A DNA stretch of 63,995 nucleotides, filler included, from Craspedostauros australis (taxonomy: Eukaryota), in NCBI GenBank assembly GCA_030167865.1. It is 12 parts of 12 records of this genome, joined end to end, with 100 filler letters (N's around TTAATTAATTAA, not from the genome) between each part and the next. Parts side by side here need not be neighbours in the genome. Positions count along the whole stretch, not along the records: positions 1 to 10,443 come from JALAGF010005882.1; 11 more parts are not named here. One strand, given 5' to 3'. The notes under the pieces are model-generated. The model was given only the letters and a program-made list of their open reading frames with translations. It was not told where the DNA came from and did no database searches. The position numbers and the translations under genes are program-made. This document shows positions 1,475 through 42,664 of the stretch, piece by piece (positions within the stretch are counted from its first letter, which is position 1; each line of letters begins with the position of its first letter).

Positions 1475-4400
1475 TGTCGGTGAATATCGACGCCTCCCCA
1501 TTAAGTACAATAATATCAATACGACTAGAAGGCATTATTGGAATGTGATAGAAGAGTTTGGAATGATCTGGACACGACATCCAGATAATTGCGACGGAAC
1601 TTGAGTTCGTGGATTCTTCAGTCCGATTGGTCGAATTGACCACTCCGACCACTTTTACCAGGTGTCCCTGCACAGCACAAGGCAAACAGCAGCAAAGGGG
1701 CGAACAACAACAACAAACACGCAAACAAGCAAAAGAGCACAACAGCTCATAATCTTGTGTAAACTATCTGATTACACCACCCACATCAATCACACTGCTC
1801 TGCCTCTGGTCTGTCGCTTCGGTTTATTGCCGGGTTTGGACTGCTGCAAGAGTTGTTGTTATAACATAGTTTACACAAGATAGTGCTCTATTGATACGAT
1901 GAGCAAAGACACCAAAGCCAACACGACGAAGCCCAAGGCCGGAGCCGGGAAGGCAAACAACAAGCCCAAGCGCCATCCAGTTGCGAGGGCACCCAAGTTC
2001 CATGGGACATGCGACGGGCTCAAGGGCAACGTCTTTGACTGCAACCCATCCTGCAGCAAGCAAACAGATGTGTACGCCAAGACCCTCGCCGCTCTGAAGG
2101 TCTACACTGGAGTCAAGTACGGCCCGGACGTCCTCGACGCCCTCGAGAACATGGAGCCAACAACCTTCATGGAACCGCCGGCTCCCGATGCGGATGCTAG
2201 CTACGCCAAGAACCACAAGTGGAAGAACCAATACGACAAGTGGGCTAAGTGCGCAGACACCTACACAACGAACATGAAGGAGCTCTACTCCCTCATTGTG
2301 GGACAGTGCTCCAACCTCATGCTCAGCAACGTCAACAAGTCCAGCGAGGCAGAGGCCCTCGAGAAAAAGCAGGACGCTCTCAAATTCCTCAAGATCATCC
2401 AGACTGTCTCCTACAACGTCACTACAACCGAAGAGATCGTCGTCGCCTCGTACAGAGTCGTCAAGAGCTTCTACGCACTCTTCCAACACCCAAACGAGAC
2501 CCTCCTCAAATACCTTGACAACTTCAACAATTTGGTTGAGGTAGCCGACACCATTGGGGCGAACCTCACTGGGCACGAGAGCATCAACGACACCGCATTG
2601 AAGGAAGCAGGTCAGGTCACGATTGTTGGCAAGTTCCGCTCACGGTAACCTACGATCGTGGAAGATGATGTTGGTTGATAGTCGTCTGTTTGCTATTTCA
2701 TTACGTTGGCTACTCCGATCCTCTTGGTGTACGCCCGTTCTCTTGCCCGATGCTCTCGGTGCTTCAATCTGTTTCGTAGATTCGGTCTCCGACTATGAGT
2801 CGGTACGCGAGATGCTCTCTCGCTCCTCTCTGTATTCTCTCTCTTTCTCTCTCTACATCGTGTGCTCGTGCTACACGATCCTCCGTGTTTGATGCGTACT
2901 CCGCATTTGACACTCTGTTCATTCAGTACTGGCTTCTACTTCATGAGTACTCGCCATTTGAAGTTCACCTTCAGTATCCATGATGCTGATCCTCTTCGGT
3001 CATCGGATCTTCGCCTCCTGCTCTGACTTGGGGACAGNNNNNNNNNNNNNNNNNNNNNNNNNNNNNNNNNNNNNNNNNNNNNNNNNNCGGTCATCGGATC
3101 TTCGCCTCCTGCTCTGACTTGGGGACAGATGTCGACGTGGTGACACGATGACATCCTGTTGACGTCAGTAGTTGTCCTTCTGCTCTCCAGATGTCATATT
3201 TCATTGGTGATGCAGCAGCCTGTCAGATGATATCGTCATCTGAGGTTTAGTTGGGAAGTACCTCGAGATTCTCTTGGTACCATTGNNNNNNNNNNNNNNN
3301 NNNNNNNNNNNNNNNNNNNNNNNNNNNNNNNNNNNNNNNNNNNNNNNNNNNNNNNNNNNNNNNNNNNNNNNATTTCCACTGTAATTCTGACGAATCACAT
3401 CATACTATTGACACGAATGTAGTTATACCGTCCAAGTGCGTATGAGAGAATAACGGGTGAACGATGCACATATACTCGTACATCTCGACATATACTCACA
3501 TGTACATCTCGACACACGATCACCGAAATCAACAAGGATGAGGTCCACGCAATCCGGCGCAACAGGTTCCTCGCCATCGCGTTCATCCTCGGGGCTGACA
3601 AGCACAGGTACGGCAAGCTCATTGAGGAGCTCCACAACGACTACCTCAAGAAGCAAACAACTATCCAGCCAACGTCACAGATGCCTTCAAGCTGCTCTCC
3701 AACTACCAAGCTGAGGCAAAGAACGTCCCAGGACAGCACACTCCACGCAGCGGCGGCATGGCATTCGTCAACACCAAGGATGGCGACAGCAAGCCCTCGA
3801 GTCACAACAGTCACAACAGTCACACCCTTGTCACCGCAACCGAACCCTACGGCGCCTACAGTGACAAAGAGCAGGATGCCTACGGCTTCTTATTCCTCCA
3901 GGCCAACAGCATCGAGTCAGAAGGGCACGCCTACAACCAGTCGTCCAACCCCATCCCTGACACCTGGATCCTCCTTGACAACCAGTCCACTGTCGACATC
4001 TTCGCACAAGGGAAGTTCCTGGACAACATCCATGAGGTTGATGACACCCTCACCATCCATTGCAACGCTGTAACAGCCATCACCAACCAGAAGGGAACGC
4101 TCAGCGGATACGGCGACATGTGGTACCATCCTGCAGGAGTGGCCAACATCCTCTCCCTCAGCAACGTGAAGGACCGCTACTGCGTGACATTCGTCAGCAC
4201 CGGTGGCAACCAGTTCATCGTGCACAAGCCTGATGGCACCACACAGGTTTTCCAAGAATCCACTACCAGCCTGTACTACCTGGACACAGCAGCCAACCTC
4301 GGAACCGTCCTGATCACTACCGTATCTGGTAACAAAACTAAGTTCTCGTCTATCGATTACTCACGTGCTCATCTTGCTCGTTCTGTACAGCAGCGTATTG

Positions 4401-6229
4401 GTCGTCCATCAACTCGCAACTACATCAAGTACGTTCGCAACAGCATGATCCAGAACTGCCCAGCCACAGCCAAGGACATCTGTAACGCCGAACTCATATT
4501 TGGTCCTGACCTTGGAGCGCTCAAAGGCAAGACGGCGCGAACCACATCTCCGCAAGTGACCGTGGAGATTGCTGCTCTACCTTCCTCCGTCATGAAGGAG
4601 TATCAAGACGTCACGCTCTCAGCTGACGTCATGAAGGTCAATAGCATTCCATCGCGAAACACATCAAGTTCGGAACCGTCGCCAAGCTAGACTCTGAGTC
4701 TGGTGCATCCATCACAAAACAGCTCCTGAGTGTCATCAAGCTCTACAAACAACAAGGATTCAAGGTCATCATGGTCCTCACTGACAACCAGTTCGAATCC
4801 ATTCGTGGCAATCTCGCAGCAGCAGGCACAGGCCTCAACGCCACATCCCGTGATGAGCACGTCCCAGAGGTGGAGAGATACATCCGGACCATAAAGGAAC
4901 GAGCCCGCAGCACGTACAACGCGCTGCCATTCAAGCATTACCCACTGGGACTCATCACCAAAATGGTGTTCAACGCTGTCTACTGGCTGAATATGTTCCC
5001 ATATCACGACGGAATCTCAAAGCGAATGAGTCCAGCCGAAATTGTGGTTGGACGCAAACTCGACTTCCACAAGCACTGCAAGGTGGAATTCGGAACATAC
5101 GTTCAGACCCATGAGGAGCACGACAACAGCATGCAACCCAGGACTGTTGGAGCCATCGCTCTGCATCCATCTGGAAACGACCAAGGCAGGTATTATTTCC
5201 ACAGCCTCCTCACCGGAAGGCATTTACATCACAGAAGCTGGACGGAACTGCTGATGCCCGATGCGGTGATCGATCACGTCCGCGCTCTCGCCAAGAAGAC
5301 CAGAGGCAAGAGGAACATGATATTCACTGACGCCTACGATAACATCGTGGCACCAGCATGCCGCGGCAACAACGATGGCGGCCCCAACGACTCAGATTAC
5401 GATCCTGATGACAAATCTGAGGCCAGCGAGGAATCGTTGGATCCCGATAGCGAATCGGATGACGATTCCGATGGGGACGATGACGATGATGGGGAGAGCG
5501 AGGAGAGGTACGAAGAGGAGGAAAAGGAGGAAGACGATGATGATGACAGCACATATGATCCAGATGGAGACGACGACAACGGCAGCGACGACAGTCACGA
5601 CGGCGACGACAATCTGGGTGCTGAGGCCAACGTACTCGACCCAATCGAAGAGGTTGTGATCGAGCCAGTGGAAGCCAACACACTCGAGCCAGCCGACGAG
5701 GCTGCGATCGCGCCAGCGGAAGCCAACATACTCGCGCCAATTGAAGCAGTCGTAAACGAGTTCATTGACGAAATCAACGCCAGGCCGGGGAACTCGATGA
5801 GCCAGAGGATCCGGCCGCCGCAGCAGAACCGAACGCCGTCGGTGAGCAGGATCCGGAACAACAAGGCCGGCGCACTTGCGGCGGACCGCGACCCGACTAC
5901 CGCCACCTGCACAACCACGGTACCACCGAAACACAAACCACAATGGTGCAGATGTCGATCAACCCGGAGGATGAAGTCAAAGAGGAGACCATGGCATGCA
6001 CATTCCTCACTGACCAGATGAATTGGAAGCAAGACCTCAAGCTGTTCAACGAGCGCAGAGAGGATGCCATCAGCAAGGAGCTGAAGCAGGTGCATGATAT
6101 GGAGGGATTTGAGCCAAAGCATTGGCATCAACTCTCCAAGGACGAGCGTCGCAAGGCACTGCGTTACCTCATGTACCTCAAGGAGAAGCGCACCGGCCTC
6201 ATCAAAGGACGCGGATGCGCTGACGGCCG
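1475..6229 (+). mobile_element. Ty1/copia LTR retrotransposon, degenerate (gag-PR-IN, start of RT), interrupted and truncated by insertions
   Basis: gag 1899-2623 resumes at 3521 (..LAIAFILGADKHRYGKLIEELHNDYL..). Protease WILLDNQST in ORF 3758..4690. Integrase LTDNQF..HVPEVERYI in 4771..6021, then an acidic linker and the RT start KEKRTGLIKGRGCADGR ending at 6229. Several frameshifts. A possible 5' LTR (~1475-1660, start uncertain) is followed by PBS-like GGTGTCCCTGC. Confidence 0.9.
2624..3514 (-). mobile_element. ~795-bp LTR-like element, copy 1 (solo), 6-bp TSD CACGAT
   Basis: Termini TGTTGGCAAG...ATCTCGACA on +. CACGAT at 2618-2623 and 3515-3520. Host copia gag reads through when the insert is removed. 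Strand inferred from the PPT-like flank of copy 6. Confidence 0.9.
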
Positions 6230-6806
6230 TGTTGGAAGGCTCCGCGCACAGAGAATCGGTAGTAGTCAACACTCTTTCTCAAAGTGTGTCTGTTATTGTT
6301 GCTGTTGTTGCTGTTGTTGCTATTGATTGTTGATGAGCGAGTGTGGGGAATGAGATGATCAAGATGCTCTCTTGATCCATCTCTTCCTTGCTCTCATTGC
6401 TTAGTGCAATCCTCTTGCGCCTCCATGCACATTGCTCTCATGTTGCTTGTTGATGTTGACTTGATCATCAACGTTGTCGTTTCTCTCTCGTTGTCTCGTC
6501 GTTGTTCCGTTCTCGGGTTTTGTTGAATCTGATGATTGATCGAATCTGATGGAATGTTTACAACATATTTCATTCCTGTAGACCTGGTAGGTAAGGTCTT
6601 GATGTGACGTCACGTGTGGTGGATACTGTGGTATCCGCTGGTGTCGCAGTACTCTGTCATCGTAGTATCGCAGTATCCTCGTGGTATCGCGGTGGTGTCG
6701 TTGTGACGTCATAGTGTTGTGTCGTGATTCCGCCACCAAATAGTCTAGATGGAGGCAAGCAAGTGTGACTGATGCATACACATCCAAGTACACACACAGT
6801 CCGACA
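6230..6806 (-). mobile_element. LTR-like element related to the 795-bp family
   Basis: Starts TGTTGGAAGGCTCCGCGCAC (compare TGTTGGCAAGTTCCGCTCAC) exactly where copia RT homology stops, and ends CAGTCCGACA. No TSD, and the right flank is unrelated sequence. Confidence 0.55.
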
Positions 6807-7990
6807 GGCATGCCTTATGGCCTCCCACGACAGCTAGAACATGAGAAATGCATATGTCACTTTTTCTCATTCAATGTTGATTCATGGATGACATTGAGTG
6901 GTATACTAGACAGTCACAGAGGCCCCCTACACAAGCATGTACAACATGACCATCAGTTGGCTACTATTGGCAAGATGGAGTGAGACACAGGTGGCTAAAT
7001 GATTATGTTTCACTGGGTTTGTTGCTATCTTTGCATTCTAGGTCAGCAATGATCTTCTCCATCTTCTCTTTGTGCATTTTGAGCATGTTCACCTGTGCTG
7101 TTACACCTCCAGTGTCTTTCAGGACCTTTTGGAGGTCTGTATTGTGTTGTTCAAGGCTTTCACTTTGCTCCTCAAGTCTCTGGATCTTTCGACACTGTCT
7201 TCGGATGGTTTGTTCCATGTTTTCACGTGTTTTGGGGGCTGCAGACATGCTGGAAATCTTTCTGGAACGATTGGCAGCCCTGGTTGCTCTTGGGGATTGT
7301 TTCATTGGAGATGCAGGGGGTGAAATGATGCCACACAGTTTGCCACCACCCTTCTCACTTGATAGAACACAGATGAAAGTGGGTACTTATCTCAAAATTG
7401 GGAGTGATTAAGTCCGTCAATGAAGTAGAGTGAAACTGTGTGATAGCGTTGTTGTGCTCTGAGTGGTTAATTGATGTTAGATGGTATGTAAGCTGGCCCA
7501 ATTCAGAACTGTTGGAGTCTGAATTGTGAGCAGATGGAGATGAAATGATGAAAATGATGCTGAGGCAACATGTGTTGCAACACACAGCAGAACATGAAGT
7601 GCAGTGCATGAATTGCAGTGCATGAAGTGCAGAGCATGAAGGTGTTGTCGAATTTGCAAGACTGAGGAGGTTCATGGTGCCTCCAATACTGATCTTGCTT
7701 CTTGGAACAACAATGATGCATGCAACAAATCCGATCATTGCAGAAATGCGATCTTGCCAAATTTGGTGGGATTGCTGAGCTCGTATCTGAGCATCTTGGC
7801 TCAGATACATTCACTCAACAAGACAGTAAACATGCCCTGTGAAGGTGGATTCGCAGGGATTCAGACATACATGTTCAGGTGCACATAAGGAGGATGACAG
7901 ACAGGGCCTGACATCCATCCTTCAACTCATTACCATCTTCAGATATGAAAGAGCACTATCGAAAAATCACAAGGGGAGAGCAAAAGCAAA

Positions 7991-8061
7991 GTACCATGCC
8001 GGGATTCGAACCCGGAACCTCAGTTAGAATTACTGGTGCTCTACCGTTGAGCTACAGGCGA
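7991..8061 (-). ncRNA. tRNA-like Pol III cassette in TRIM 3' LTR
   Basis: A-box/D-arm TAGCTCAACGGTAGAGC and T-arm CCGGGTTCGAATCCCGG are intact. The acceptor stem is poorly paired and the anticodon loop is non-canonical. TATAAA lies 30-35 nt upstream and T4/T5 runs lie downstream. Confidence 0.8.
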
Positions 8062-8446
8062 TGCGATTGCTGANCCGAACACAAGTGAAATTTATAGATA
8101 GTGGGGGCTACGGGAGTAACGTACTTAGCACTATTCGGTTTTGTGCTGATACTCCCCTACGCTACGACCGTGGACCACCTGCTCAAGAGCACTATGACGG
8201 AAAGTTGTCATCTCCCGCGCCTCCCCACAGCGGGACACCCTCAAAGCTGGGCGGCTAATAGTGCAGACGAAGTTGGGAGTGCTGCCGTAGCAGACAAGTG
8301 TGAGACTGGGTCGAAATCCGGCGATCGCAACGCGCCCACGAAGGCGTGTTGTGCAAGGTAGTCCTAACTCAGCGATGTAGAACTAGCTGCGACTGTTAAT
8401 CTGAAAGAGCACTATCGAAAAATCACAAGGGGAGAGCAAAAGCAAA

Positions 8447-8517
8447 GTACCATGCCGGGATTCGAACCCGGAACCTCAGTTAGAATTACTGGTGCTCTAC
8501 CGTTGAGCTACAGGCGA
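8447..8517 (-). ncRNA. tRNA-like Pol III cassette in TRIM 5' LTR
   Basis: Identical to 7991-8061. Confidence 0.8.
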
Positions 8518-8695
8518 TGCGATTGCTGATCCGAACACAAGTGAAATTTATAGATAGTGGGGGCTACGGGAGTAACGTACTTAGCACTATTCGGTTTTGT
8601 GCTGATAAGATACCAAGACAGGTATCTGAGGTCCGTCGGGAGTTGCGGGAAATGAGGTCAACAGAGAAAGAGAAAACGGTTCATGACGAAAAGTC

Positions 8696-10432
8696 TCATG
8701 TGGACCTGATGCAGTCTACGGAGAACAAGATTAGACATAGGCTAAGGTGAATATAGACTTTTGATCTGATATCACTGTCAGTATCATGAATTTCTATCAC
8801 TTCATGGATGGCCTCATGTGAAGGTGCAGACACATTGCTCATATCAATCACCACAGACTTGCTTTGATGATTTGCATCAGGGGAGCAGCCTGTGGACTCA
8901 TTGTCAGAATCAGGATTCCAAGTTGCAGCAGAGTTGGATGCTGACTCCATATGCACAATCCACTCCTCCTTGTCTGTGCAGTTGTCCCCTTCACTTGAGG
9001 AAGACTCCATCTCATCACTGCTGGTGTCCTTCTCACACCTGGACTTCATGATCTGCTTCTGTTGGGGAGCATGCTTGGATTCTGGTGCTTTGGCAACACC
9101 CTGACTTGGCTGCTTCATGTCATCATCAGATGAATCCCATTGAGGTCCTGCAATGGATTCAAGAGCTGCCCTTGATGCTCTGGCAAAAGCAGCATCTGCC
9201 AGTGGTGTCCCCAGAGCTGAAGGGGTAGGTTTGGGAGCTCTGGCAAGTGTAGGAGCTTTCTTGGGTGACAAGGTGAAGGTAGGTAGCTCTCTGAGGACTG
9301 CAGGGGTTGGCTTGGGAGTGATGGCAAGTGTAGGAGCTGTGTTGGGGGAAAGGGTGAAGGGAGGAACTTCTTTGCTGGACCTGGAGATTGAAGAAGTTGT
9401 CAGTGTTGCTTTGGCAACATTCTCTTCCTCCTCTTCCTTCTCATCATCTGAAGACTTCCATCCAGGCCCTCCTTCACACACTCTTAGCGGCTCCTCATGA
9501 TCATCCTCATCTGAAGACTCATAGATAGGGGCTCTGGCTTGCTCAAGATCCTCTTCTTCCACATCCTCTTCATCAGAAGACTCATACACAGGTTGCTGTG
9601 TCTGGTCCTCCAGCCTGGCATGTGGGCCTGCTTCAAAAAAGACTGCCTCATCAATATCCATAGCATCACACTTGGCCTGGTCAATCGTCATCACTTGGGC
9701 ATCTGACAGTTTGATTGCATCATATTGGGTGGCCCCAATCATGGCAATTCCCTCAGCACGAATTGAGAGCCTGCCCTTGGCTGCCTGGATGAAGAGCTTC
9801 ACATTTGTTGACTCCAAGACATCAAACTTTGTCTTGGGCCTGGATGAGAGTTGCCTGACCTCCTTGTAGTGAAGCCTTGGCAACTGGAAGTAGTTCTGCA
9901 TGTGGTGACTGGCTTCAAATTTGGCACCTTCTGCAAGCTTGGAGAGCTTCTCGATGGTGAGCTCTCCAGTTGCAAGCAGGAGCCTGAGTCCTCTGCCAAT
10001 ACCCTGGTTGGAATGTCGTTCCTTGGGTGAAGCCACTGCTCTTCCAATGGCAAGGATGCCGTCCCCAAGAATATCCATCTTCCTCATTCTCCTGGATATG
10101 GTCACAACCAGATGGCAGGGCAACCCTTCTCCCTTCAGCCCCTCAAATGTGATGCTGGTTGGCTTCTCTGGGTCCAACCAGTTCACCATGTTGATGACCT
10201 CCTTATTCAACTCATCAAAGAGTGCACAGGAGCTCTTGGTCATGTATGGTCTCACAATTGGCTCCATCTTTCCCTTCAACTCTGGGTGTAGTTGTTCCAC
10301 TGTAAGCTCCTGCATGGAGTCTATCTGTCCCACATACATATCAGCCCTGTCCGACAGGCTTCTGAAGTATAGCCTCAGGGCATTGGAAGTGGTAGTGTAG
10401 TCGCCAATGATCCTGGCATTTGCAGGGCCCAC
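8696..10432 (-). CDS. Hypothetical protein (578 aa, probably 5'-truncated at scaffold end) with acidic/Pro-rich repeats
   Basis: Long open frame with a globular-looking N-terminal half and internal repeats (YESSDEE/DD x2, FTLSP..APTLA..PKPTP x2). No recognised domain. Confidence 0.45.
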   Translation of the reverse strand: MGPANARIIGDYTTTSNALRLYFRSLSDRADMYVGQIDSMQELTVEQLHPELKGKMEPIVRPYMTKSSCALFDELNKEVINMVNWLDPEKPTSITFEGLKGEGLPCHLVVTISRRMRKMDILGDGILAIGRAVASPKERHSNQGIGRGLRLLLATGELTIEKLSKLAEGAKFEASHHMQNYFQLPRLHYKEVRQLSSRPKTKFDVLESTNVKLFIQAAKGRLSIRAEGIAMIGATQYDAIKLSDAQVMTIDQAKCDAMDIDEAVFFEAGPHARLEDQTQQPVYESSDEEDVEEEDLEQARAPIYESSDEDDHEEPLRVCEGGPGWKSSDDEKEEEEENVAKATLTTSSISRSSKEVPPFTLSPNTAPTLAITPKPTPAVLRELPTFTLSPKKAPTLARAPKPTPSALGTPLADAAFARASRAALESIAGPQWDSSDDDMKQPSQGVAKAPESKHAPQQKQIMKSRCEKDTSSDEMESSSSEGDNCTDKEEWIVHMESASNSAATWNPDSDNESTGCSPDANHQSKSVVIDMSNVSAPSHEAIHEVIEIHDTDSDIRSKVYIHLSLCLILFSVDCIRST

Positions 10433-10443
10433 TGAGATTGGCT

Positions 10444-10543
10444 NNNNNNNNNNNNNNNNNNNNNNNNNNNNNNNNNNNNNNNNNNNNTTAATTAATTAAN
10501 NNNNNNNNNNNNNNNNNNNNNNNNNNNNNNNNNNNNNNNNNNN
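10444..10543. other. Artificial scaffold linker N44-TTAATTAATTAA-N44 (first of 11)
   Basis: Identical six-frame-stop 12-mer at 10488, 15274, 17759, 20276, 23279, 26671, 29953, 42709, 54570, 59613 and 62727, each embedded in N runs. Confidence 0.97.
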
Positions 10544-10796
10544 CTTGCCATTGTCTTTTCACTGCATGTGTGTGGAAGTGTTGAGCCAATGAGTGACTTG
10601 GAATGTGTGACACAGCAGTGGAGTAATCACCATTTCCACTTTGCACCATCACCATCACTCCAACAAATCGACTTGCCCAGTACCCTTGTCTTCATCCATA
10701 ACCTTGCACAACTCCATCATGGGCATTGCAATGTACTCATCATCAAATCTGTGGTTCATTGTTCCACCATGACAGAGGGCATGGATGTCTCCCATC

Positions 10797-11630
10797 TGTT
10801 GGCAAGTTCCGCTCACGGTAACCTGCGGTCGTGGAAGATGGTGTTGGTTGATAGTCGTTCGTTTGCTATTTCATTACGTTGGCACTCCGATCCTCTCGGT
10901 GTCCGTTCGTTCTCTTGCCCGATGCTCTCGGCGCTTCAATCTGTTTNNNNNNNNNNGTCTCCGACTATGAGTTGGTGTGCGAGATGCTCTCTCACTGCTC
11001 TTCATATTCTCTCTCTCTCTCTGTCTCAGCATCGTGTACTTCGTGCCACACGATACTCCGTGTTCGATGTGTACTCCGCATTCAATACTCCGTTCATTCA
11101 GTACTGGTTCCTACTCCATGAGTACTTGCCATTTGAAGTTTATCTCCTGTATCCATGATCTTGATGCCCTTCGGTCATCGGATCCTCGCCTCCTGCTCTG
11201 ACTTGGAGACAGATGTCGACATGGTGACATGATGACATCCTGTCGACGTCAGTAGGCGTCCTTCTGCTCTCNNNNNNNNNNNNNNNNNNNNNNNNNNNNN
11301 NNNNNNNNNNNNNNNNNNNNNNNNNNNNNNNNNNNNNNNNNNNNNNNNNNNNNNNNNNNNNNNNNNNNNNNNNNNNNNNNNNNNNNNNNNNNNNNNNNNN
11401 NNNNNNNNNNNNNNNNNNNNNNNNNNNNNNNNNNNNNNNNNNNNNNNNNNNNNNNNNNNNNNNNNNNNNNNNNNNNNNNNNNNNNNNNNNNNNNNNNNNN
11501 NNNNNNNNNNNNNNNNNNNNNNNNNNNNNNNNNNNNNNNNNNNNNNNCCAAGTGCGTATGAGAGAATAACGGGTGAACGATGCACATATACTCGTACATC
11601 TCGACATATACTCACATGTACATCTCGACA
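10797..11630 (-). mobile_element. ~795-bp LTR-like element, copy 2 (gapped, no TSD)
   Basis: Same termini and body as copy 1. Flanks CCCATC and GCTGTG differ. Confidence 0.88.
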
Positions 11631-12696
11631 GCTGTGTGGTTTGCACAGATCCTCACGAACGATGTACATGTGCCCTCTGGACATCACTGGGGTCACCATG
11701 ACCATTGCCACCTTTCCTGGTGCGAGAGGTCCATCACGTTTGATGGTAACGCCCTCAACATTCAGCTTCATCAGCGAGTGGACATGACACACACCAAGGT
11801 CATGAACCCTGCCATGTGAGTCCGTGTGGGATGTCACCTTCACATAGTCACCAGCGAGCATCATGCTTGCGAGCTGAAGATCACAGTGATTGCAGGATGG
11901 TGTGTGCTGTGTTGATGGAGGCTGCAGTTGAGTTGAAAGGCGCGTCGCAACACACACCAGAAACACGAGGACAGCAACACAGCGCACCGCATCATCAGCC
12001 GTCGAAGCACAGCACAGCACAGCACAGCGCATCACAGAGGGCATGGGCAACATGGGAGGACAGTCACAAGGTGCATTGTATCATCCGCTCTCTCCCATGT
12101 GGAGGGTCATAGTCATTCTACATTGTTGTACAAACTATAACTACAAGCATCACAGAGACAGGAGCAGCTGGTTCGAGATGCGCAGTGTTTCCGTTGTCCA
12201 CTTTGTGAGGATAGTTTTTGGTGTTGTGGAATGGAGCCGCAATTCGGGACTCGCAAAGTGTTCTCATTGATGGGCACATTTGGTAGAATTGTGGTTAATC
12301 TCCATGGCCCCCAACAGCAAAAACTGAATGAGAACACCAAACACAACACAACAACACGACAAGGGAGACACACAACAAAACTCCTCAAGCGCCGTCGAAC
12401 GGCATCATCGGCGCTGCGATAACCAGCGGTCCAGTGCAAGATCTGAGCGTATTGGCGGAACCGCCATGGAAAAATTGGTGGATGAGCAAGAGGGGTCTGT
12501 CGGAGTGGTTTGATTTGGGACCGTGGCAGGCCCATGCGCAACCGACACGATTTGGAGGAGAATCCGCTGGTTGGATATGGTCTCTGCCTGGAATGCACAG
12601 GCGATTCCAACAACTATTGATGGGCAAGACGCATCCAGGAGGATGATATGAAGGTGGCCACGAAGTTTGAGGGTCGGGGGTGGCCTGGAAGGTTCC

Positions 12697-15229: not shown

Positions 15230-16555
15230 NNNNNNNNNNNNNNNNNNNNNNNNNNNNNNNNNNNNNNNNNNNNTTAATTAATTAANNNNNNNNNNNNNNN
15301 NNNNNNNNNNNNNNNNNNNNNNNNNNNNNCAGAGGCACACTCCGAGCGTGAAATTGAAGCAGGCCACACTGGCACCATCGAACAGTATCCCAGCAGAGTA
15401 AATCATGAGTGAATCCTGAACAAGTTGATGGGATGAATCATTGCTCGGTTGCGCAAGTTGCTCGCAGTCATGGCTGCAGACAAAAGAAAGGGCAAGAAAC
15501 AAAAGGGAGGCACGGAGACAGCGACCCACAACACTGATATNATTCCAGCAGGCGGGTCAGCCGTCGAAGATGGCGAGATGCAGCCACNGGGATGCCCCGA
15601 GGACCGTCAAAATAAAAAGGAATGCTTGCCAGCCTATCCACGATGGATCCCAAGGAGGAGATCAAAATGACCAAATGATTGCGGCAGGGTGAGCATGCAG
15701 CAAGGTACTGTCCAGATGTGAGGAGAACCTGTGTTGCCTGTTCAGTGTGTTGACACTGGATCTGTCCAGGATGCAACTTGTATGCTTGCTGATACATTGA
15801 AGCTGACAAACAGGAGTGGCTCACGACATGTGGCATTACCCTAACCATGGCATTAACAAACATCGCAAAAGGAGCGGACGCAATCATTGTTCACAACTTA
15901 TGTCATCGAATTGTGCACAAGGAGCCTGTCGAATGGGTAGAGAAGGTGAAGGCCCAGCATCAATGAGAGAAGCCACCACAATGAATGCCTTTATCAGCGC
16001 AAACACAGATGAGACAACCGCCAAAGCTACAAATGCAGCAACAGAGATAGCAAGAGAGGTGAGCAACGAAAGCAATGACAACGCCGACGGTGAAGCCACC
16101 ACTGCCAAGGCACATCAAACAAACACGGCCACAATAATTAGCTCAAGGGTGCCTGTCCTGAATCTGGAAGCAGCAATACAAGCTGCGCACAAGGCAGACG
16201 CCGAAGCCAGGATCCAGAGCAGAGATACAGAGGTCATAACTCACGGTCTGCATGGAAGGAAGCAGAAACGATGATATGCAATACGAATTATGTACACCAA
16301 CGTTTTCCACGCACAAGAGGCTTGCAAGGATGACTGTAGCATAACAGTAGAGAAAGACAATATAATGCAGAGTAGAGTCAGTGTTGATTGCTGTTATTGT
16401 GTAAGGAAAGAACAGAGGAGGTGCGTCTCAACGCAAAATCGCTGTGTGCACAAGTTTACACGCAGCAACACGAAGCATCCAAAAAATGTGACAGGTTGGG
16501 GTGGTCGAAGTAGTCTTTTCTCAGATGAGCGAAATTCGACTACTTTTTTTGTGGT

Positions 16556-17714: not shown

Positions 17715-17814
17715 NNNNNNNNNNNNNNNNNNNNNNNNNNNNNNNNNNNNNNNNNNNNTTAATTAATTAANNNNNNNNNNNNNNNNNNNNNNNNNNNNNN
17801 NNNNNNNNNNNNNN

Positions 17815-18946
17815 GGTGGTGACAGCGGACGAGGAGGTGGTCGAGGAGGAAAGCAACAGGCCAGGAGCTCACCAGCAAAAAGACGTCGCCAACTTGTCTC
17901 ACAGAGGATGAGAACTGTTGGATTTGGAGCCACCAGCTGGAGCGAAAATGGGGTGACATCCTCCAGGAACGCAACCTGCTGATCAGAGGGTCTGAACCCT
18001 TTGTGCACACGATGAGGGAAGAAGGCGCTATGGATGAAGTACTGGCATTTGTGAAGGACCTGGATGAGGCCCTGAAAGAGGGCGCCTCTCTTGATGACTC
18101 AACGGGCATGTTTCACGATGCGTACTTCAACAAGATGTCNGCAGACATGAACCTACGCATGGTCAAGCTGATGGTCAGACTGGTTGCCACCTCCAACAAA
18201 TTCTCTGGAGGGCTGTGGAAGTCCAAGCAGATCAAGGAAACACACAAGACAGCAGCATGGATTGGCGTGAGGATGGCACCCATGATGGTCAAAGGCATGC
18301 CTCTGGACAACAAAAAAGAAGAACAGGTGAAATTCCCCAACCTGGTGGCAAAACAAGAAACAGCGAAAACTAAGACACAAGGTTGTGACGTTTCCGCACA
18401 AGCAGCCAAAACCGCAGGGCCTCCACAGTGTGAATGATGTGCTCAGCAAGTACCACAAGATGTTCTTTGACGTCCAACTCCCCATGAAGCGTGAAGGCCA
18501 TGACTCCCCGCTGGTGCAGGTTATCGCCGGTATGAACGCCCTTCGTGCATTCATTTTCAGGGCGGACTCGAAGGCGCAGATCATTGCGTGGCATAAAAAC
18601 AATACAATGCTTCCATGGACCTCCACTGACGTACCATGGTCCACAAGGGAGACCCTGAAACAAATTGTGGAGAGTCTCTATNNNNNNNNNNNNNNNNNNN
18701 NNNNNNNNNNNNNNNNNNNNNNNNNNNNNNNACAAGGGAGACCCTGAAACAAATTGTGGAGAGTCTCTATGCAAAGACGGGATCCATGACATACAACAGA
18801 CTGCGGGCTGCTCATGAGCAGGAGATTGAAGCATTTGACAATGACAGTACCCTGAGCATGGCAGCCATTCATTTTCGCAAGTCAGATATCCAGGAGCACA
18901 ACATCATTGCAGCCAGCTGGTTGTTTGGGAGCCACAGCACTACCAA
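17815..18946 (+). pseudogene. Frameshifted coding remnant, possibly a LINE ORF1-like protein, truncated by 795-bp element
   Basis: Consecutive ORFs 18003..18437, 18385..18747 and 18636..19001, ending IQEHNIIAASWLFGSH at the insertion. Family assignment is tentative. Confidence 0.3.
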
Positions 18947-19741
18947 TGTTGGCAAGTTCCGCTCACGGAAACCTACGATCGTGGAAGGTGGTATTGGTTG
19001 ATAGTCGTTCGTTTGCTATTTCATTAGTTGGTTACTCCGATCCTCTCGGTGTACACCAGTTGTCTTGCCTGATGCTCTCGGCGCTTCAATCTGTTTCGTA
19101 GATTCGGTCTCCGACTATGAGTCGGTATGCGAGATGCTCTCTTGCTCTTCTCTCTCTCTTTACTCTCTCTCTCTCTCAACATCGTGTACTTGCGCTACAC
19201 GATACTCTGTGTTTGATGCGTACTCCGCATTCGACACTCCGTTCATTCAGTACTGGCTCCTATTCCATGAGTACTCACCATTTGAAGTCCATCTTCAGTA
19301 TCCATGATCTTTGTGGGTCATCGGATCTTCGCCTCCTGCTCTGACTTGGAGACAGCTGTCGACGTGGTGACACGATGACATCCTGTCGACATCAGTAGGC
19401 GTCCTTCTGCTCTCCAGATGTCACGTTCCATTGGTGATGCAGCAGTCTGTCAGATGATATTGTCATCTGAGGTTTAGTTGGGAAGTACCTCAAGATTCTC
19501 TTGGTGCCATTGATGGATGGACGGACGATCTTTCAATTCTCTCAGAAATCGTCGATTGCAAATTTCCTCCAGAAATCTTGCCCCTTTTCATGTGTTCCAT
19601 TTCCGCTGTAATTCTGACGAATCACAGTATACTATCGACACGAATGTGGTTATACCGTCCAGGTGCGTATGAGAGAATAGCGGGTGAACGATGCACATAT
19701 ACTCATACATCTCGACATATACTCACATGTACATCTCGACA
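18947..19741 (-). mobile_element. 795-bp LTR-like element, copy 3 (complete, ungapped, no TSD)
   Basis: TGTTGGCAAG...ATCTCGACA. Flanks TACCAA and TTCTCA. Confidence 0.92.
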
Positions 19742-20050
19742 TTCTCACGATATTGGAAGAGCAAAACCTTGAATTCGACTTGTTGGCTGTGCTGTCGGCT
19801 GTCTGCTGCCTGCTATGTGCTGCTGTGTGATGATTCCCAAACTTGTTGTTGCAGGAGTGTGAGAATTGGAGCGTAAGCAAAAAGAGACATCGAGTCAAAC
19901 AAGTCAAAGATATCACGATTAGCACAGGAGGTACAAGAGCACAGGAAACACAGAGGATGACCAGTGAGGACAGGTCAGCCACTGACATCAACAGCAACAA
20001 AAACAAACACAGGGGCGGCATCGACGCTCATGATCCCAATTGGATCACAC

Positions 20051-20081: not shown

Positions 20082-20331
20082 TGTAGCACCACATTCCAAG
20101 AGTGAAAGCTCTGTCTTGCTTGCTATCAACTATTCCTTATCACACAAGCAACTGCTTCCATCCGAGTACTGCAAGCAACAGCAAACATCAACCATCACAA
20201 TTGATACGAATACAACAACCCTCATTGCCCTNNNNNNNNNNNNNNNNNNNNNNNNNNNNNNNNNNNNNNNNNNNNTTAATTAATTAANNNNNNNNNNNNN
20301 NNNNNNNNNNNNNNNNNNNNNNNNNNNNNNN

Positions 20332-23234: not shown

Positions 23235-23334
23235 NNNNNNNNNNNNNNNNNNNNNNNNNNNNNNNNNNNNNNNNNNNNTTAATTAATTAANNNNNNNNNN
23301 NNNNNNNNNNNNNNNNNNNNNNNNNNNNNNNNNN

Positions 23335-26626: not shown

Positions 26627-26726
26627 NNNNNNNNNNNNNNNNNNNNNNNNNNNNNNNNNNNNNNNNNNNNTTAATTAATTAANNNNNNNNNNNNNNNNNN
26701 NNNNNNNNNNNNNNNNNNNNNNNNNN

Positions 26727-29511: not shown

Positions 29512-30008
29512 NNNNNNNNNNNNNNNNNNNNNNNNNNNNNNNNNNNNNNNNNNNNNNNNNNNNNNNNNNNNNNNNNNNNNNNNNNNNNNNNNNNNNNNNN
29601 NNNNNNNNNNNNNNNNNNNNNNNNNNNNNNNNNNNNNNNNNNNNNNNNNNNNNNNNNNNNNTTCAGAACTGTGAGCTCATTCTCTTCAGCTCCTTTGCCT
29701 TTCGTTTCTCACATAGCATCTCCTGCAGCAGCATCGTGTTATACTGTTGCATTCATGCATCTCATCATCATGAATCGTCGCTTGCATACATGAGATCGCA
29801 TCCGCAGGCATCCCTTGTCATACCCATCGTCGTGCATATCCGTAGGCATTCTTTCCATGCACCTTGTCGTGCATATCCTTATTCTACATTCCCTGCGGTA
29901 CGATTCCANNNNNNNNNNNNNNNNNNNNNNNNNNNNNNNNNNNNNNNNNNNNTTAATTAATTAANNNNNNNNNNNNNNNNNNNNNNNNNNNNNNNNNNNN
30001 NNNNNNNN

Positions 30009-32892
30009 CGATCCGCAGTGTCTGGATGAGGTGATGGAGTTGGATGCTGATCTTCCCTTCATGCGCCTCCTCGATGATATGCGGTTGCAGTGCGCGACAG
30101 CATCATCGGGACCGATGAGGACGATGACGACACCATATACCGACATTCACCTGCAGAACTTCAGCAAAGAGGCACTACGCGACTGGGTGTCGCAGCTGTT
30201 TGATCAGGACGATGATGTCGTGGATGAAACCACCAAGCTCCTGCACGAACAGACCGCAGGCAACATCTTCCACACCATCCACCTGCTACAGGACATGGAG
30301 CGCACCAAGGCTTTGACATACAGCCGCATCACGTTCCAGTGGGAGATCGATGCTTCCCGGCTCAGTTGCACTCCAAGCAACAACAACACCAACAACCACA
30401 ACATCAGTGATGGCATGGGCGGCAGCAGCCACGCCGCAGCAAACGGTGTGGTCCAACTCATCACATCCAGACTACGATCTCTGCCTGTTCCATTGCAGAG
30501 AGCACTCGTGCTGGCGTCGTACATCCGATCCTCGTTCGAGCTGGGCGTACTACAAGCGGTGTGGGACTACGAAGCACAGCACAACTCCACCGGCGGTGAC
30601 GTCCTTGCCACTCCTGGAGGCAAAGTCAACGAGGCGGACGCTGGCAAGTCGCTTGCAGAGTGGTTGGAACAAGCTGTTCTGGAGGGCCTCCTCGCAAACT
30701 CCATCGGCGCTGCAAGCTATCGCTTCGCACACGACCGCATCCAACAGGCAACGCGTGATCTCGTGCCGTTCGGAGAGGCGCGCATGAAGCTTCGTCTGCG
30801 GATCGGGCAGTGTCTGTGGGACTTCTGCACAAACACCACCAGCAGCAGTGGTGGCGGTGACTCGCCCAACACAGTCACTGATCGAGGAAGCGACAGCGGT
30901 ATCTTCTTCATCGCAGCCGACCATCTCAACTGCGCCCCAACCAAGGATCATCTGACATCGACTCGGCGCAATCTGCAAGTCGGCGAGCATGCACTTCAGA
31001 TCGCCGCTTTGGCGCCTGCTGCGACATACCTCCAGCTTGCGAACACTGCACTACGCAAGGTGAAAGGTAACCTGTGGCAAGACTACTACGATCTGACGAT
31101 TCGATTGATGCGTGCTCGATGTGACGTCGAGCTCTCTCTCAGCCGATTCGACTTGGGATATTCGTTGGGAAACGCGGTGCTTGAGCATGCACGTTCTGCT
31201 CAGGACAAGCTCCCTACGTACATTGCAATTGCCAGTGCTCTCGGCAGGCAAGATGACCATGCGAAAGGGTTACAGTTGGCCCAAGAGGGTGCCCAGATCT
31301 GTGGCGAGTATCCCAAGCGATGGTTTGCGTTCCATGGCATATCGCAGCTTCTTTCTGTCAGAGCCTACTTGAAGAGGACAACAGTGAAGCAGTTCTTCGA
31401 ACAAAATCCGATCACCGACAACCCACAAACATTGCTCTCAATGCACCTATTGAAGGAGCTTGGCATACGAGCGTATTCATGTCAAGACATTATGGCATGG
31501 ATGGTGGCAACCATGCGAACGATGCAGATGACGAGGCGAGATGGCATCTGCGAGTATTCTGCTGGCGCCTTGATTTCCTTTGCCATGATCCAAGCAGGCT
31601 TGGGCGAGTTTGCGGACGCACGCAAGTCCGCCGAACTTGCAAAGGAGATGACACTTAGGGTGGGCCGTGGGACGAGGACAGAGGGATGGATATATTACAC
31701 CGTCGCCATGTATGTGGATTCGTTCTTCAAGCCATGGAGTGAAGTCTCCCAGGACTTTCAATATGCTTACACGTCGGCCATGGCAGCTGGCGATGTCGAG
31801 CTCAGCGTGCTAATCCTGAATGCGAACGTAATGTTCTCGTTCTTCGATGGGCGCCCCCTCCCCTTCGTCGTACCGGCCGCAAGGTCTCTCTTCGAGCACA
31901 TGGAGATATACAAGGTCGATGTATTTCGGGGTACACGCGATGAATTGTTCTTGTTATGCAACTGTATGCAAAACACGATCGAAGTGGAATGGGAGACACT
32001 CATGGATGTCAACAAATATGAACACACGAACCCATTCGAACGAACCTCCGCTTATTGGGGTCGCCTCTACATCGCGGTGTACTTCGGCAAGTTCGAATAC
32101 GCGGAGAAGATGGATCATCTGCTCACGACGAACGGCCTGGACGACCAAAGCTTTCCTTTTGTGACATCAGTCCCTTTCCTCTGTGGGTTGATGGCTTCTC
32201 ATCGATACCGACAGACAAAGAAGAAGAAGTACCTCAAGATGCTCCGGCAACGCAAGCGGGAGCTGAAGAACATGTGCGACCAGAAAGGAATCAGTGTGCA
32301 CTATCTGTACTTGATTCTGCGCGCTGAATGGAAGGCCATCAAGGTTGGAGCCACCAGCTCTGCCCTCGTGGACACCTGCTACGACAATGCCATCATGCAT
32401 GCCAGAGCCGGAAACCATCTTGACTCAGCAGGGCTCGCGAGTGAGCTGGCGGGCAAGCAGCTGCTGAGGAGAAGCGGCGGCAAGGACCCTCGCATCCGTG
32501 GCTACTTCACCCAGGCGTTAGGCTTCTACGAGAGATGGGGCTCCGTCCCCAAGGCCAAGAGTTTCCGTGAAGAGTACGGTGACTACGTTGATGAAGATCG
32601 TGTGCGCAAGATGAAGATGGACAACAGCCTCGTCGGGCAAATCAAATCCATCGATCTTCGCGATCAGTCGCAGGAGCATCACAGTCATACGGGCCACACC
32701 CAAGATCTGATGTCACATGGAACACCAGGCAATGGACTTGCCCAGTCTGTTTCCGACATGATTTCTAAAGGGCAGGCAAGCAAAGATCCAACAGCGAGAA
32801 CGCCGAGCGATGACAACGCGAGAAGCAACGAATCGGCGGAGAGTGCTGTCGATGATGACAACATGTCTCAGCTGGCAGATTCATCGCAGTAG
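30009..32892 (+). CDS. STAND/AAA-ATPase-associated helical protein (C-terminal ~950 aa, 5'-truncated), resembling the ATPase/TPR-like core of multidomain Ser/Thr kinase-ATPase-histidine kinases but ending without a kinase domain
   Basis: Motifs TAGNIFH, YRFAHDRIQQA, FFIAADHLN and AxGFYERWG..KA in a 953-aa open frame. Confidence 0.8.
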
Positions 32893-33803
32893 ACAGAGGA
32901 AACGAGTATAATTGTCAAACATGTACAAGTAACTACGGAAGACGTATTGGCCCGTTGTTGCGTGCCCTAGTCGGAGCTCTTGTTGATTATTTGTGAGTGT
33001 TGTCCGAAGACAACCCCCCAACCAGTATTTGACTAATACGATTAGTAAAAGAGTATGAAGTAAGGAATTCAGTGAGAATTGTCATGCCCCTTGATCTCGT
33101 GGTAAACCTGCATAGAACAGAGTTGTGACAAATGATGTGAGTGCTGGCTTTGCCAGCGCCTTTGTGAGCATATCCGCAAAGTTCCGTTTGGATGGGACAT
33201 AGACTGGAACAAGGACTCCAGCTCCCACTGCTTCGCGGACTCTGTGGAATGAGACTGCCACATGCTTCTTTTGTAGCAAGCTGTCTGCAATGGTCGTGTT
33301 CGATATCACTGCAGCATTGTCGCCGAACGTGATCGTTGGCGCTTTGGCTGTGACTCCCAGCGATCGGAGTGCGTATTGGAGTGCAATGATTTCCTCGGTA
33401 GCCGAGCGCATTGCATTGAATTCTGCTCCGTACGTTGATGTTGTGACTGATGTCTGGCGTTTGCTGGAGAAGTGCACTGGGGTGCGTCCCAGGAATATGA
33501 TGATGCCGGTGTTCGATCTCCGCATGACCAGATCATGTGCATGGTCCGCATTGACGAAGGTGCACATTTGGATCTCAGGGTATATTGCTGCCGGTGCCTG
33601 ATCGTCAATGTCCTCGGCCGCTTCAGGGTACTCTTCCTTCATCTGTGCAACCATCTCTGGGTTGGGTGATTCTGGATTGAAGTTCTTGAATGCGATGGGC
33701 TTTGAGTCGATCATGGTTCTGAGGGTTGATTTGTTCTTGAGGTATCCCCATATCTTAAGTGCTCGTGTGAGATGCCCTTTTCGTGGCATCGATGTGAAAC
33801 GTG

Positions 33804-34634
33804 TGTCGAGATGTACATGTGAGTATATGTCAAGATGTACGTGTATATGTGCATCGTTCACCCGCTATTCTCTCATACGCACTTGGACGGTANNNNNNNN
33901 NNNNNNNNNNNNNNNNNNNNTGATTCGTCAGAATTACAGGGGAAATGGAACACACGAAAAGGGGCAAGATTTCTGGAGGAAATTTGCAAATAACGATTTC
34001 TGAGAGAATTAGAAATCTCGTCCGTCCATCCATCAATGGTACCAAGGAATCTTGAGGTACTTCCCAACTAAACCTCAGATGACGATATCATCTGACAGAC
34101 TACTGCATCACCAATGGAACGTGACATCTGNNNNNNNNNNNNNNNNNNNNNNNNNNNNNNNNNNNNNNNNNNNNNNNNNNNNNNNNNNNNNNNNNNNNNN
34201 NNNNNNNNNNNNNNNNNNNNNNNNNNNNNNNNNNNNNNNNNNNNNNNNNNNNNNNNNNNNNNNNNNNNNNAGACCATGGATACTGAAGGTGAACTTCAAA
34301 TGGTAAGTACTCATGGAGTAGCAGTCAGTACTGAATGAACGGAGTGTCGAATGCGGAGCACGCATCGAACACGGAGTATCGTGTAGCACAAGCACACGAT
34401 GGTGAGAGAGAAAGAGAGAGAGAATACAGAGAGGAGCGAGAGAGGATCTTGCGTGCCGACTCATAGTCGGAGACTGAATCTACGAAACAGATTGAAGCGC
34501 CGAGAGCATCGGGCAAGAGAACGAACGGACACCGAGAGTATNNNNNNNCCAACGTAATGAAATAGCAAACAGACGACTATCAACCAATACCATCTTCCAC
34601 GATCGTAGGTTACCGTGAGCGGAACTTGCCAACA
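33804..34634 (+). mobile_element. 795-bp LTR-like element, copy 4, 6-bp TSD AACGTG, inside copia RT
   Basis: AACGTG at 33798-33803 and 34635-34640. RT reads AFATSSLSR|FTSMPRKGH when the insert is removed. Confidence 0.93.
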
Positions 34635-36198: not shown

Positions 36199-36769
36199 TG
36201 ATATTTATTAGCACAACGCTTTATTCACCTGATTCGTTTTCTGATTAGTCTGTCCTTGTATGTGCTGAAACGATGCTTTACTCCGACACATGATTTTCGG
36301 CATAAGAGGGACACACTAGGGAGAACATCAGAGATTCGGTCTGGCCATCGCCCGGCAAACATGTGATGCCCAATTCGATCTGATATACTTCCCAACTAAA
36401 CCTGAAATGACAACACACTCGATGACCTCAAGCATCATCAATGGAATGTGGAATCGACAGAGCCATGGAACGGTGATAAGTGACGTCGACACAGAAGACA
36501 TCATCGCCACATCATGGGTCATCTCCACATCAGAACAAGATCGGATTCGAGGTGCAATGACTGAGAGCTGACCTTGAAGACANNNNNNNNNNNNNNNNNN
36601 NNNNNNNNNNNNNNNNNNNNNNAGAAGTCACTCAACCCAAACAGTGTCTTCACTCACCAGCTTGTCACCCTCGTCCTGAAAGACTTGATCTCTCTTGAAG
36701 GACTCGTGTGATTTCGCTGTGTACAATAACGAGATAACAATATTGGGTTGACCAAACCATCGGTCAGCA
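36199..36769 (+). mobile_element. Insertion in copia pol, diverged relative of the 795-bp family (boundaries uncertain)
   Basis: TACTTCCCAACTAAACCT..ATGAC and CATCA.CAATGGAA..TGACGTCGACA blocks at ~36386-36490 match the 795-bp element. It interrupts the pol frame. Confidence 0.5.
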
Positions 36770-42020: not shown

Positions 42021-42664
42021 ATGGCATCTCACCGCTCTTTGAGGACCACCGGAGTACTCCCTATGACATCAATGAAGTCCAGTGCCTCCCCAACATCCGC
42101 TGCGGCGATGGGATCAACAAGCAACATGACATCTCCTTCCACTTCAGCCACACCACGATGCAGTAGGGCATCGCTTCGCCTTCACGATAGCGTCTTGACG
42201 TCAGGAAATGACTTCTACGATGATGGATACAACGAAGTCGAGCTCGACACAGACCTGCCGAGCTCGCTCTTCAGCAGTCGCCGCAGTGGCAGCGATGATG
42301 GTAATGATGGTGATGATGGCAGAGATGGAATGTTTGGACGTGAGGAGGAGCTGCGAACACTCCATCGCACATTCAAGCAGATGATACACAATTCCAAATC
42401 AAAAAAGAACAGGAAAGGGACCGCCCAGAAGTCCTCCGTGAATACCACCCTTCCGTCTCAGACATCTATGGATGTGACCACCGATCGATCCTTCGTTCCA
42501 GCCGCCTTCGTTTGGGGTACCAGCGGTACGGGCAAGTCCAAGCTCGTCGACGTCTTCTGTGATCAGTTGCTCGAAACGATCAATACCCGCAAAGGCAGAG
42601 GAGTCCGTGTGCTGAAGGGCAAATTCCAGGAGCATCAGCAAGGCAATCCCTTCTCCGCCATCAC
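42021..42664 (+). CDS. N-terminal part of STAND/AAA-ATPase (AAA_16-like) gene, cut by scaffold end
   Basis: FGREEELRTL, Walker A FVWGTSGTGKSKLV, GKF...PFSAI. Confidence 0.8.

Follow-up and report, generated by a model that had tools for sequence, protein, structure and literature searches.

A probable miniature LTR retrotransposon with a tRNA-derived unit in each repeat, and its candidate Copia partner, in a Craspedostauros australis genome assembly

Background

What is a tRNA-like sequence doing in both of the identical repeats that bound a 662-bp non-coding locus, and what would transcribe and move such a locus? The question is raised by positions 7946-8607 of a 63,995-nucleotide stretch of DNA from the genome assembly of Craspedostauros australis (GCA_030167865.1), the whole of which we call the window. 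An earlier note, made from the sequence alone, had read the locus as a miniature long terminal repeat (LTR) retrotransposon resembling the Helenus and Cassandra elements. That structural reading is upheld here by the LTR pair, by a match to the Rfam tRNA model and by the positions of promoter motifs, and it is strengthened by a primer-binding site (PBS) shared with a Copia-like element of the window and with published fungal Helenus families. We consider it very probable that the locus is a non-autonomous terminal-repeat retrotransposon in miniature (TRIM) of the Helenus, or TRIMp3, kind.

Helenus was defined in 2024 from Repbase-driven screens, and comprises TRIMs with tRNA-like sequence in their LTRs from fungi, animals and one plant (Kojima 2024, PMC10886601; what we draw from this paper, here and below, relates to portions of its main text and supplement), a host range that agrees with the one given in the earlier note. 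Its members measure 311-1263 bp, conserve a box A of the form TRGCY...YGG and a box B GGTTC, and are described as having arisen several times. Fungal Helenus elements generate target-site duplications (TSDs) of 5 bp and depend on Copia elements; most of them are primed from a tRNA anticodon loop, as Ty5 and copia are, and one fungal lineage uses tRNA-Asn-GTT (Kojima 2024, PMC10886601).

Structure of the element

Two direct repeats of 206 nt, at 7946-8151 and 8402-8607, are spaced 456 nt apart. A base-by-base comparison finds them identical at 205 of 205 comparable positions, the sole difference being an N at 8074 in the left copy, and the 5-mer AGATA stands immediately outside both repeat ends, at 7941-7945 and at 8608-8612, where a matching pair would be expected by chance about once in 1024. 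Both the 662-bp element with two identical 206-bp LTRs and the 5-bp duplication that the earlier note had described are therefore borne out. The sense strand of the element is the minus strand, with the 5' LTR at 8402-8607 and the 3' LTR, which contains the N, at 7946-8151; the LTR termini are TA...CA, and on the sense strand the 5' LTR ends in ...GTGCTCTTTCA. The plus-strand orientation was rejected: nothing like a PBS follows 8151, no purine-rich stretch precedes 8402, and the tRNA unit would lie antisense.

The 250-nt internal part (8152-8401, minus strand) between the LTRs is unique, gap-free and non-coding, has a GC content of 0.58, and in sense is devoid of any T run of four or more. No further copy of the element or of its internal part was found in the 64-kb window. 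Judged by the identity of its LTRs, which dates an insertion only coarsely, this is apparently a young copy. Inside the internal part, at 8183-8197 (sense positions 410-425 of the element), the LTR-end motif ATAGTGCTCTT recurs a third time in partial form, and a shorter form, ATAGTGCT, is present near the LTR start. The element lies 88 nt past the stop of an open reading frame (ORF).

The tRNA-derived unit and its promoter motifs

Each LTR contains a tRNA-derived unit in sense orientation, at 8445-8517 in the 5' LTR and 7989-8061 in the 3' LTR. The Rfam tRNA model, whose gathering score is 29, matches the minus strand at 8453-8512 and 7997-8056 with 35.4 bits (E-value 2e-05), and these two are the only Rfam matches at gathering score in the entire window. 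The alignment spans model positions 6-65 of 71, leaving the acceptor stem unmatched; read from the sequence, four of the seven acceptor pairs form, and the anticodon loop, AAUUCUA, lacks both U33 and a purine at 37. The centroid fold resembles a cloverleaf: the D, anticodon and T arms form, and the acceptor stem is weak. ARAGORN detected no tRNA in the window and, given the LTR alone, none at default settings, -ps or -ps80; a dubious call appeared only at -ps70, and the parent isotype that it implied, Leu, is implausible. That the unit is a functional tRNA gene was likewise rejected, on the negative ARAGORN result, the decayed acceptor stem and the non-standard loop.

Position 1 of the tRNA corresponds to LTR position 91 in sense (window 8517 and 8061), and a transcript start is predicted near 8517. 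Counted along the LTR, the A box TAGCTCAACGG occupies 98-108 (window 8500-8510 and 8044-8054) and the B box GGTTCGAATCC 140-150 (8458-8468 and 8002-8012), and both fit the Helenus-conserved TRGCY...YGG and GGTTC. A TATAAA at 56-61 (8547-8552 and 8091-8096) is located -35 to -30 from tRNA position 1, and downstream of the unit are a T4 run at 167-170 (8438-8441 and 7982-7985) and a T5 run at 186-190 (8418-8422 and 7962-7966). The LTR can thus be laid out as U3 from 1 to 90, including the TATA motif, R, which begins at 91 and extends as far as the T runs, and U5 as the last 16-36 nt, ending in CA. The intact A and B boxes, broken acceptor stem, TATAAA at -30 to -35 and downstream T runs that had been claimed for each LTR all held when the LTRs were compared with the tRNA model and their motifs were placed. 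Because both boxes are consensus-perfect while the acceptor stem has decayed, selection appears to have acted on the promoter rather than on the tRNA.

Primer-binding site, putative polypurine tract and a candidate partner

Directly after the 5' LTR, from window position 8401 down to 8388 on the minus strand, lies the PBS GATTAACAGTCGCA, the complement of which takes the form of an anticodon stem-loop (stem TGCGA, loop CTGTTAA, then TC). By its sequence the PBS reads as complementary to positions 27-40 of a tRNA-Asn(GUU)-type tRNA, that is to its anticodon stem-loop (loop CUGUUAA). Three findings described below support this reading: the identical 14-mer at a Copia-like element, an analogous PBS in another Copia element, and the matching core in rust-fungus Helenus families. 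A canonical PBS, pairing with the 3' end of a tRNA (TGG...), was rejected since none is present after the 5' LTR. At the other inner junction the stretch GTAGCGTAGGGGAG (8152-8165, minus strand), with its core AGGGGAG (8152-8158), lies directly upstream of the 3' LTR in sense and presumably acts as the polypurine tract (PPT); it is short and present in a single copy. The PBS that had been claimed is therefore real, but of the anticodon-loop type, and the claimed PPT is at the right place yet short.

The identical 14-mer PBS occurs a second time in the window, at 48908-48921 on the plus strand, where by chance about 0.0005 occurrences would be expected in 128 kb (both strands). This second site follows a similar LTR end, with 11 of 16 letters identical, or 25 of 30 over 48892-48921 when the PBS (14/14) is counted, and stands directly upstream of two gag-pol ORFs that are Copia-like (48914-50071 and 50319-53873). 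In its C-terminal part the Copia-like ORF shows homology to integrase regions from the window's other Copia ORFs (31-36% identity, E-values 4e-11 to 4e-20), and a weak match to rve (E-value 0.016) is the sole Pfam match of the gag-pol ORFs of this element, which extends over 48600-53873 and sits on another contig of the window than the TRIM. Because the same 14-mer stands beside a similar LTR end in both, the Copia-like element is a candidate mobiliser of the TRIM, or at least a member of a candidate autonomous partner lineage. LTR-1_PTrit and Copia-9_PGr offer a published instance of elements that have internal-portion sequence in common and dissimilar LTRs (Kojima 2024, PMC10886601).

The window is rich in divergent Copia elements, and a second one, at 32913-40175 on the minus strand, is bounded by LTRs of ~170 nt (~32913-33082 and ~40007-40175) that are 95% identical, with gag and RVT_2 between them (RVT_2 ORF 34549-35433, integrase-like ORF 36631-38532) and no clear TSD around the element. 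At the place of the PBS it carries GATTAAGAGTCG, which is complementary to a loop of the Lys-CUU type, CTCTTAA, and is cut where the TRIM's PBS is on the tRNA. As a whole this PBS reads GATTAAGAGTCGTGC; it directly adjoins the 5' LTR and complements the anticodon loop of a tRNA-Lys(CUU)-type tRNA. When one mismatch at most is allowed, the pattern GACTNTTAATCTG has four matches in the window against 0.25 expected, and none of 100 shuffles reaches four. There is also a one-mismatch match to an anticodon-loop PBS plus LTR-start pattern, GACTTTTGATCTG, at 8756-8768 (plus strand), 150 nt from the TRIM and within an ORF at 8696-10495, which may be due to chance.

Copies of the element and the state of the assembly

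Evidence for further copies comes from a public sequencing run, X1, a single small run (share 0.15) whose library type, RNA or DNA, is a guess, and which was compared with positions 7000-9600. Sixteen contigs align there, nine at 99% identity or more, six at 95-99% and one at 90-95%. Contigs cover 7950-8456 at a depth of 18-70, the depth is 0 over the unique flanks 7609-7869 and 8653-9600, and both LTR-internal junctions are bridged (8002-8227 and 8278-8432). The stretch 8198-8307 occurs in two versions, one with two differences from the window and the other with nine differences and two indels; all 11 of the listed substitutions are within 8228-8360 and none is in the LTR. In a 224-nt contig, 167 nt that do not resemble the window are attached to the LTR end at 8400, and 30 printed letters from this foreign side are absent from the window at up to three mismatches. 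Another contig, of 157 nt, has the LTR from 7950 joined to a copy of 7491-7555 (97% similar) and 20 further letters; the shorter side of this joint (7555/7950) has 28 letters, below the 31 required for bridging, and our reading of the contig is that an LTR end variant, ...CTCTAACA, stands beside a paralogous flank.

These data indicate several copies or subfamilies of the element. Since two versions of the internal part and two additional junctions of LTR and flank are present in the run, the element appears to be multi-copy rather than an artefact of assembly; and the contigs that span both LTR-internal junctions speak against the possibility, raised in the earlier note, that the repeat is an assembly duplication. 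The left flank 7435-7608 is also present in run X1, at a depth of ~14-16 and 97% identity, and is joined there to an LTR at another point, so part of this flank belongs to repeated sequence. A 26-mer of the LTR had no match in metagenome contigs, and a 30-mer of the tRNA-like unit had none in metagenome, prokaryote-genome or viral contigs, collections which may lack the organism.

The window contains 3,378 N. Eleven identical joints, each made of 44 N, TTAATTAATTAA (a stop in all six frames) and 44 N, are found at 10444-10543, 15230-15329, 17715-17814, 20232-20331, 23235-23334, 26627-26726, 29909-30008, 42665-42764, 54526-54625, 59569-59668 and 62683-62782. As these joints are artificial, the window is a chain of contigs whose order and adjacency across them are perhaps not real. 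Near-identical short-range duplications also occur beside N runs and inside Copia coding regions, at 20524-21149/21200-21825, 23578-23935/23986-24379, 53814-53961/54033-54180 and 60424-60505/60556-60637; these look like gap-closing or haplotype artefacts of assembly.

Other features of the window

It may be that the contig carrying the TRIM, over 3372-10443, is part of a larger old element. Two overlapping long ORFs at 3626-6018 (plus strand) have no Pfam match even at an E-value of 1, and the second, by reading only, contains a DDE-integrase-like stretch followed by a long acidic tail; these ORFs raise the possibility. The ORF at 8699-10441 had no usable match in the Atlas search.

A dispersed repeat of ~0.4-0.9 kb, either a solo LTR or some other element, is present in the window in six copies at 74-95% identity, often adjoining Copia ORFs: four on the plus strand (2617-3556, 10788-11672, 18942-19783 and 58736-59565) and two on the minus strand (34641-33804 and 43130-42765). 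A protein search with a Copia gag-pol ORF returned four matches at 28-37% identity, none of them named. Overall, the best protein matches of the window's ORFs reach 29-36% identity under uninformative names, and this want of close relatives makes a rust fungus an improbable host.

The region 41961-47905 (plus strand) contains an AAA_16 ORF and then, across gaps, a 1393-aa ankyrin-repeat ORF (Ank_2, 751 bits, 21 stretches). A large ORF at 30010-32889 (plus strand), relatives of which carry AAA_16, gave five matches in a protein search at 20-36% identity, with the names 'predicted ATPase' and 'diguanylate cyclase (GGDEF)-like protein'; in the Atlas search, Bacillariophyta was the commonest phylum in two of ten rows among the matches listed, which is the sole lineage hint and a lead only. 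The ORFs of both regions look like STAND/NLR-type genes in a transposon-rich region.

Proposed cycle and alternative explanations

We hypothesize the following cycle as the most likely one. Transcription would start at or near tRNA-like position 1 of the 5' LTR (window 8517), pass the oligo-T runs there without stopping, continue across PBS, internal part and PPT, and terminate at the T runs of the 3' LTR (7962-7985), giving an RNA of ~540-560 nt with a terminal repeat R of 80-100 nt. A Copia-type element would supply reverse transcriptase and integrase in trans. A 5' fragment of tRNA-Asn(GUU), its anticodon stem-loop (27-40) pairing with the 14-nt PBS, would prime the minus strand; strand transfer would then proceed through R, plus-strand synthesis would be primed at the purine tract, and the Copia integrase would insert the product with a 5-bp duplication. 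We infer both the transcript ends and the identity of the mobilising Copia family. Whether polymerase III makes the genomic RNA of this cycle seems to us, from the motifs, an evenly balanced proposition.

One alternative is an ordinary TRIM driven by polymerase II. In that case the TATAAA at LTR 56-61 would set the start downstream, at a distance of about 30 nt, and the tRNA unit would be a passenger relic, for instance of a short interspersed element (SINE) or tRNA pseudogene that landed in the LTR; at most, polymerase III would make from it a separate short RNA of ~80-100 nt, terminated by the T runs of the LTR in which it began. The spacing between the TATAAA and the predicted start is indeed the classical one for polymerase II, the unit is not a functional tRNA, the T4 (167-170) and T5 (186-190) runs upstream of the PBS would halt polymerase III before a usable template was made, and promoter function in Helenus itself is unvalidated (Kojima 2024, PMC10886601). 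Nonetheless, the A and B boxes remain perfect beside a decaying acceptor stem, suggesting that the promoter is under selection, and the order of tRNA unit, oligo-T and LTR end recurs in the seven of seven fungal Helenus LTR ends in the portions of the supplement that print them, a layout consistent with R being delimited by where polymerase III starts and stops, as reported for Cassandra (Kojima 2024, PMC10886601). That sense T runs of at least four are confined to the two in each LTR is a weak point on the same side, since only ~0.8 others would be expected by chance. On this evidence we regard a genomic RNA made by polymerase II, with the tRNA unit as a relic, as rather unlikely. A short polymerase III RNA from each LTR is likely under either polymerase model.

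Two further explanations dispense with a retrotransposon of this kind altogether. The assembly does contain near-identical short-range duplications beside gaps (those listed above, the second pair being taken here over 23578-23769/23986-24177), an N falls within one of the repeat copies, and the contigs are joined by artificial linkers, so that the 456-bp unit might be an artefact or a simple tandem duplication with no transposon behind it. Yet no gap separates the repeat copies, an exact 5-bp duplication surrounds the whole element, one inner junction falls precisely at the PBS and the other has a purine tract, the Copia-like element has an identical PBS, and contigs of run X1 bridge both junctions while other junctions and variants exist; we therefore consider an artefact highly improbable. 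Still less credible is the chance occurrence of two tRNA-derived SINEs or tRNA pseudogenes 456 bp apart in the same orientation. Like a SINE head, each repeat combines tRNA-derived sequence, an A and a B box and a terminator in the form of a T run, but the repeats are identical for 90 nt upstream of the tRNA unit as well and their identity stops abruptly at the TA...CA termini, one duplication flanks the pair rather than each copy, there is no A-rich or LINE-like tail (LINE, long interspersed element), and a PBS and PPT occupy the inner junctions.

It is important to recognize that several observations weigh against a Helenus-type TRIM transcribed by polymerase III and moved by the Copia-like partner. 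Since the T4 and T5 runs separate the tRNA unit from the PBS, polymerase III would have to pass two terminator-like runs before its transcript could include the PBS; most of its transcripts should stop after ~80-100 nt. Polymerase II could just as well be positioned by the TATA motif at -30. In fold energy the tRNA unit does not surpass shuffled sequences (z -0.10), and the PPT core has only seven purines. The window holds one copy of the element, and the copy number comes from run X1 alone, which is possibly not independent of the assembly. The Copia-like element at 48600-53873 is incomplete, with no reverse transcriptase or 3' LTR before the gaps that begin at 53962, and the TRIM LTR has no similarity to the 1 kb upstream of the Copia-like PBS past the terminal 16 nt (260, 213 and 74 of 300 shuffles reached the observed score for the U3, tRNA and U5 parts).

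Novelty and significance

The kind of element described here has been known since the description of Helenus in 2024; what is new is this member, possibly the first in a new eukaryotic supergroup, together with its anticodon-loop tRNA-Asn PBS and its candidate Copia partner. A literature search found no TRIM or tRNA-carrying LTR from diatoms or stramenopiles, supplements on bioRxiv and closed journals lying outside that search. The consulted portions of Kojima 2024 (PMC10886601) mention diatom, stramenopile and oomycete zero times in main text and supplement, and protist zero times in the main text; 'tRNA', 'TRIM' and 'non-autonomous' appear zero times in the portions of Maumus 2009 (PMC2806351). 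It is tempting to speculate, though we do so tentatively and with slightly more doubt than conviction, that this is the first Helenus-type TRIM with a polymerase III promoter beyond fungi, animals and land plants, from a diatom or other poorly sampled protist, convergent with the fungal design and with a Copia partner that can be identified by its 14-nt PBS.

If so, the convergent design would consist of a tRNA unit and oligo-T in the 3' half of an LTR of ~200 nt, a 5-bp duplication and priming from the anticodon loop of tRNA-Asn, and the pair of TRIM and Copia element would be a tractable one in which to test how RNAs made by polymerase III enter the Copia cycle. Such a clean and apparently young copy, in another eukaryote that has been poorly sampled, would extend the range of TRIMs with small-RNA promoters, and would also support their repeated convergent origin. 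The shared PBS provides a concrete TRIM-helper pair with which to ask whether polymerase III can make a replicative RNA despite the T runs before the PBS. Such elements also have consequences for the genomes that carry them, as their tRNA-like matches inflate counts of tRNA genes and their copies scatter polymerase III promoter boxes near genes.

Comparison with known systems

Cassandra is likewise a TRIM that carries a polymerase III gene, with promoter and terminator, in its LTRs, and transcription has been proposed to run from the small-RNA unit of its 5' LTR to that of its 3' LTR (both via Kojima 2024, PMC10886601). It differs in being a plant TRIM with a 5S rRNA unit, whereas the unit here is derived from a tRNA: none of the eight Rfam matches at an E-value of up to 10 in 7700-8900 is to 5S. 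Membership of Cassandra or Ajax was accordingly rejected, for want of 5S-derived sequence in the LTR, and that of the retrozymes too, as no hammerhead ribozyme is among the same eight matches. TRNA-derived SINEs (SINE2) are also short and non-autonomous and have a tRNA head with an internal polymerase III promoter, but they depend on LINEs and have no LTRs, PBS or PPT, and the element described here has these landmarks of an LTR element. Like the priming predicted for the TRIM, that of Ty5 and Drosophila copia makes use of the anticodon stem-loop inside a tRNA rather than of the tRNA 3' end, a trait of the Copia superfamily (via Kojima 2024, PMC10886601); those elements are autonomous and use initiator tRNA-Met, while the TRIM is non-coding and its PBS corresponds to a tRNA-Asn(GUU)-type loop.

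The closest likeness is to Helenus, and above all to its fungal, Copia-dependent members. Helenus is defined by structure, and kinship in sequence to a described family is not demanded of a member. The element is short and non-coding with two LTRs (662 bp in all, LTRs of 206 nt, internal part of 250 nt), each LTR holds tRNA-derived sequence with a box A and a box B, the PBS is immediately downstream of the 5' LTR, and the TSD (AGATA) is within the 4 or 5 bp of Helenus. As in the fungal elements, an LTR of ~200 nt has its tRNA unit in the 3' half and a T4 run before its end, the A and B boxes are conserved in a decayed tRNA, the TSD is of 5 bp, the PBS is of the anticodon-loop type, and the total size is within 311-1263 bp (Kojima 2024, PMC10886601). 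In the portions of the supplement to that paper, seven of seven occurrences of GATTAACAG open the internal parts of rust-fungus Helenus elements; these seven internal parts begin with the core of the TRIM's PBS, GATTAACAGT, six of the seven with the full GATTAACAGTCG, and in Helenus-2_UVF, as in the TRIM, no spacer precedes the core. In all seven printed LTR ends of these elements a T4 run likewise separates the tRNA-like T arm from the end of the LTR, again as in the TRIM, and from the anticodon the seven families would correspond to the tRNA-Asn lineage. By contrast, the LTR of the TRIM starts with TA and not TG, and its tRNA unit, LTR and internal part look unrelated to those of fungal Helenus when judged by eye against passages of the supplement. 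Because Helenus elements are described as having arisen several times (Kojima 2024, PMC10886601), the present element is likely to have arisen independently of the fungal families.

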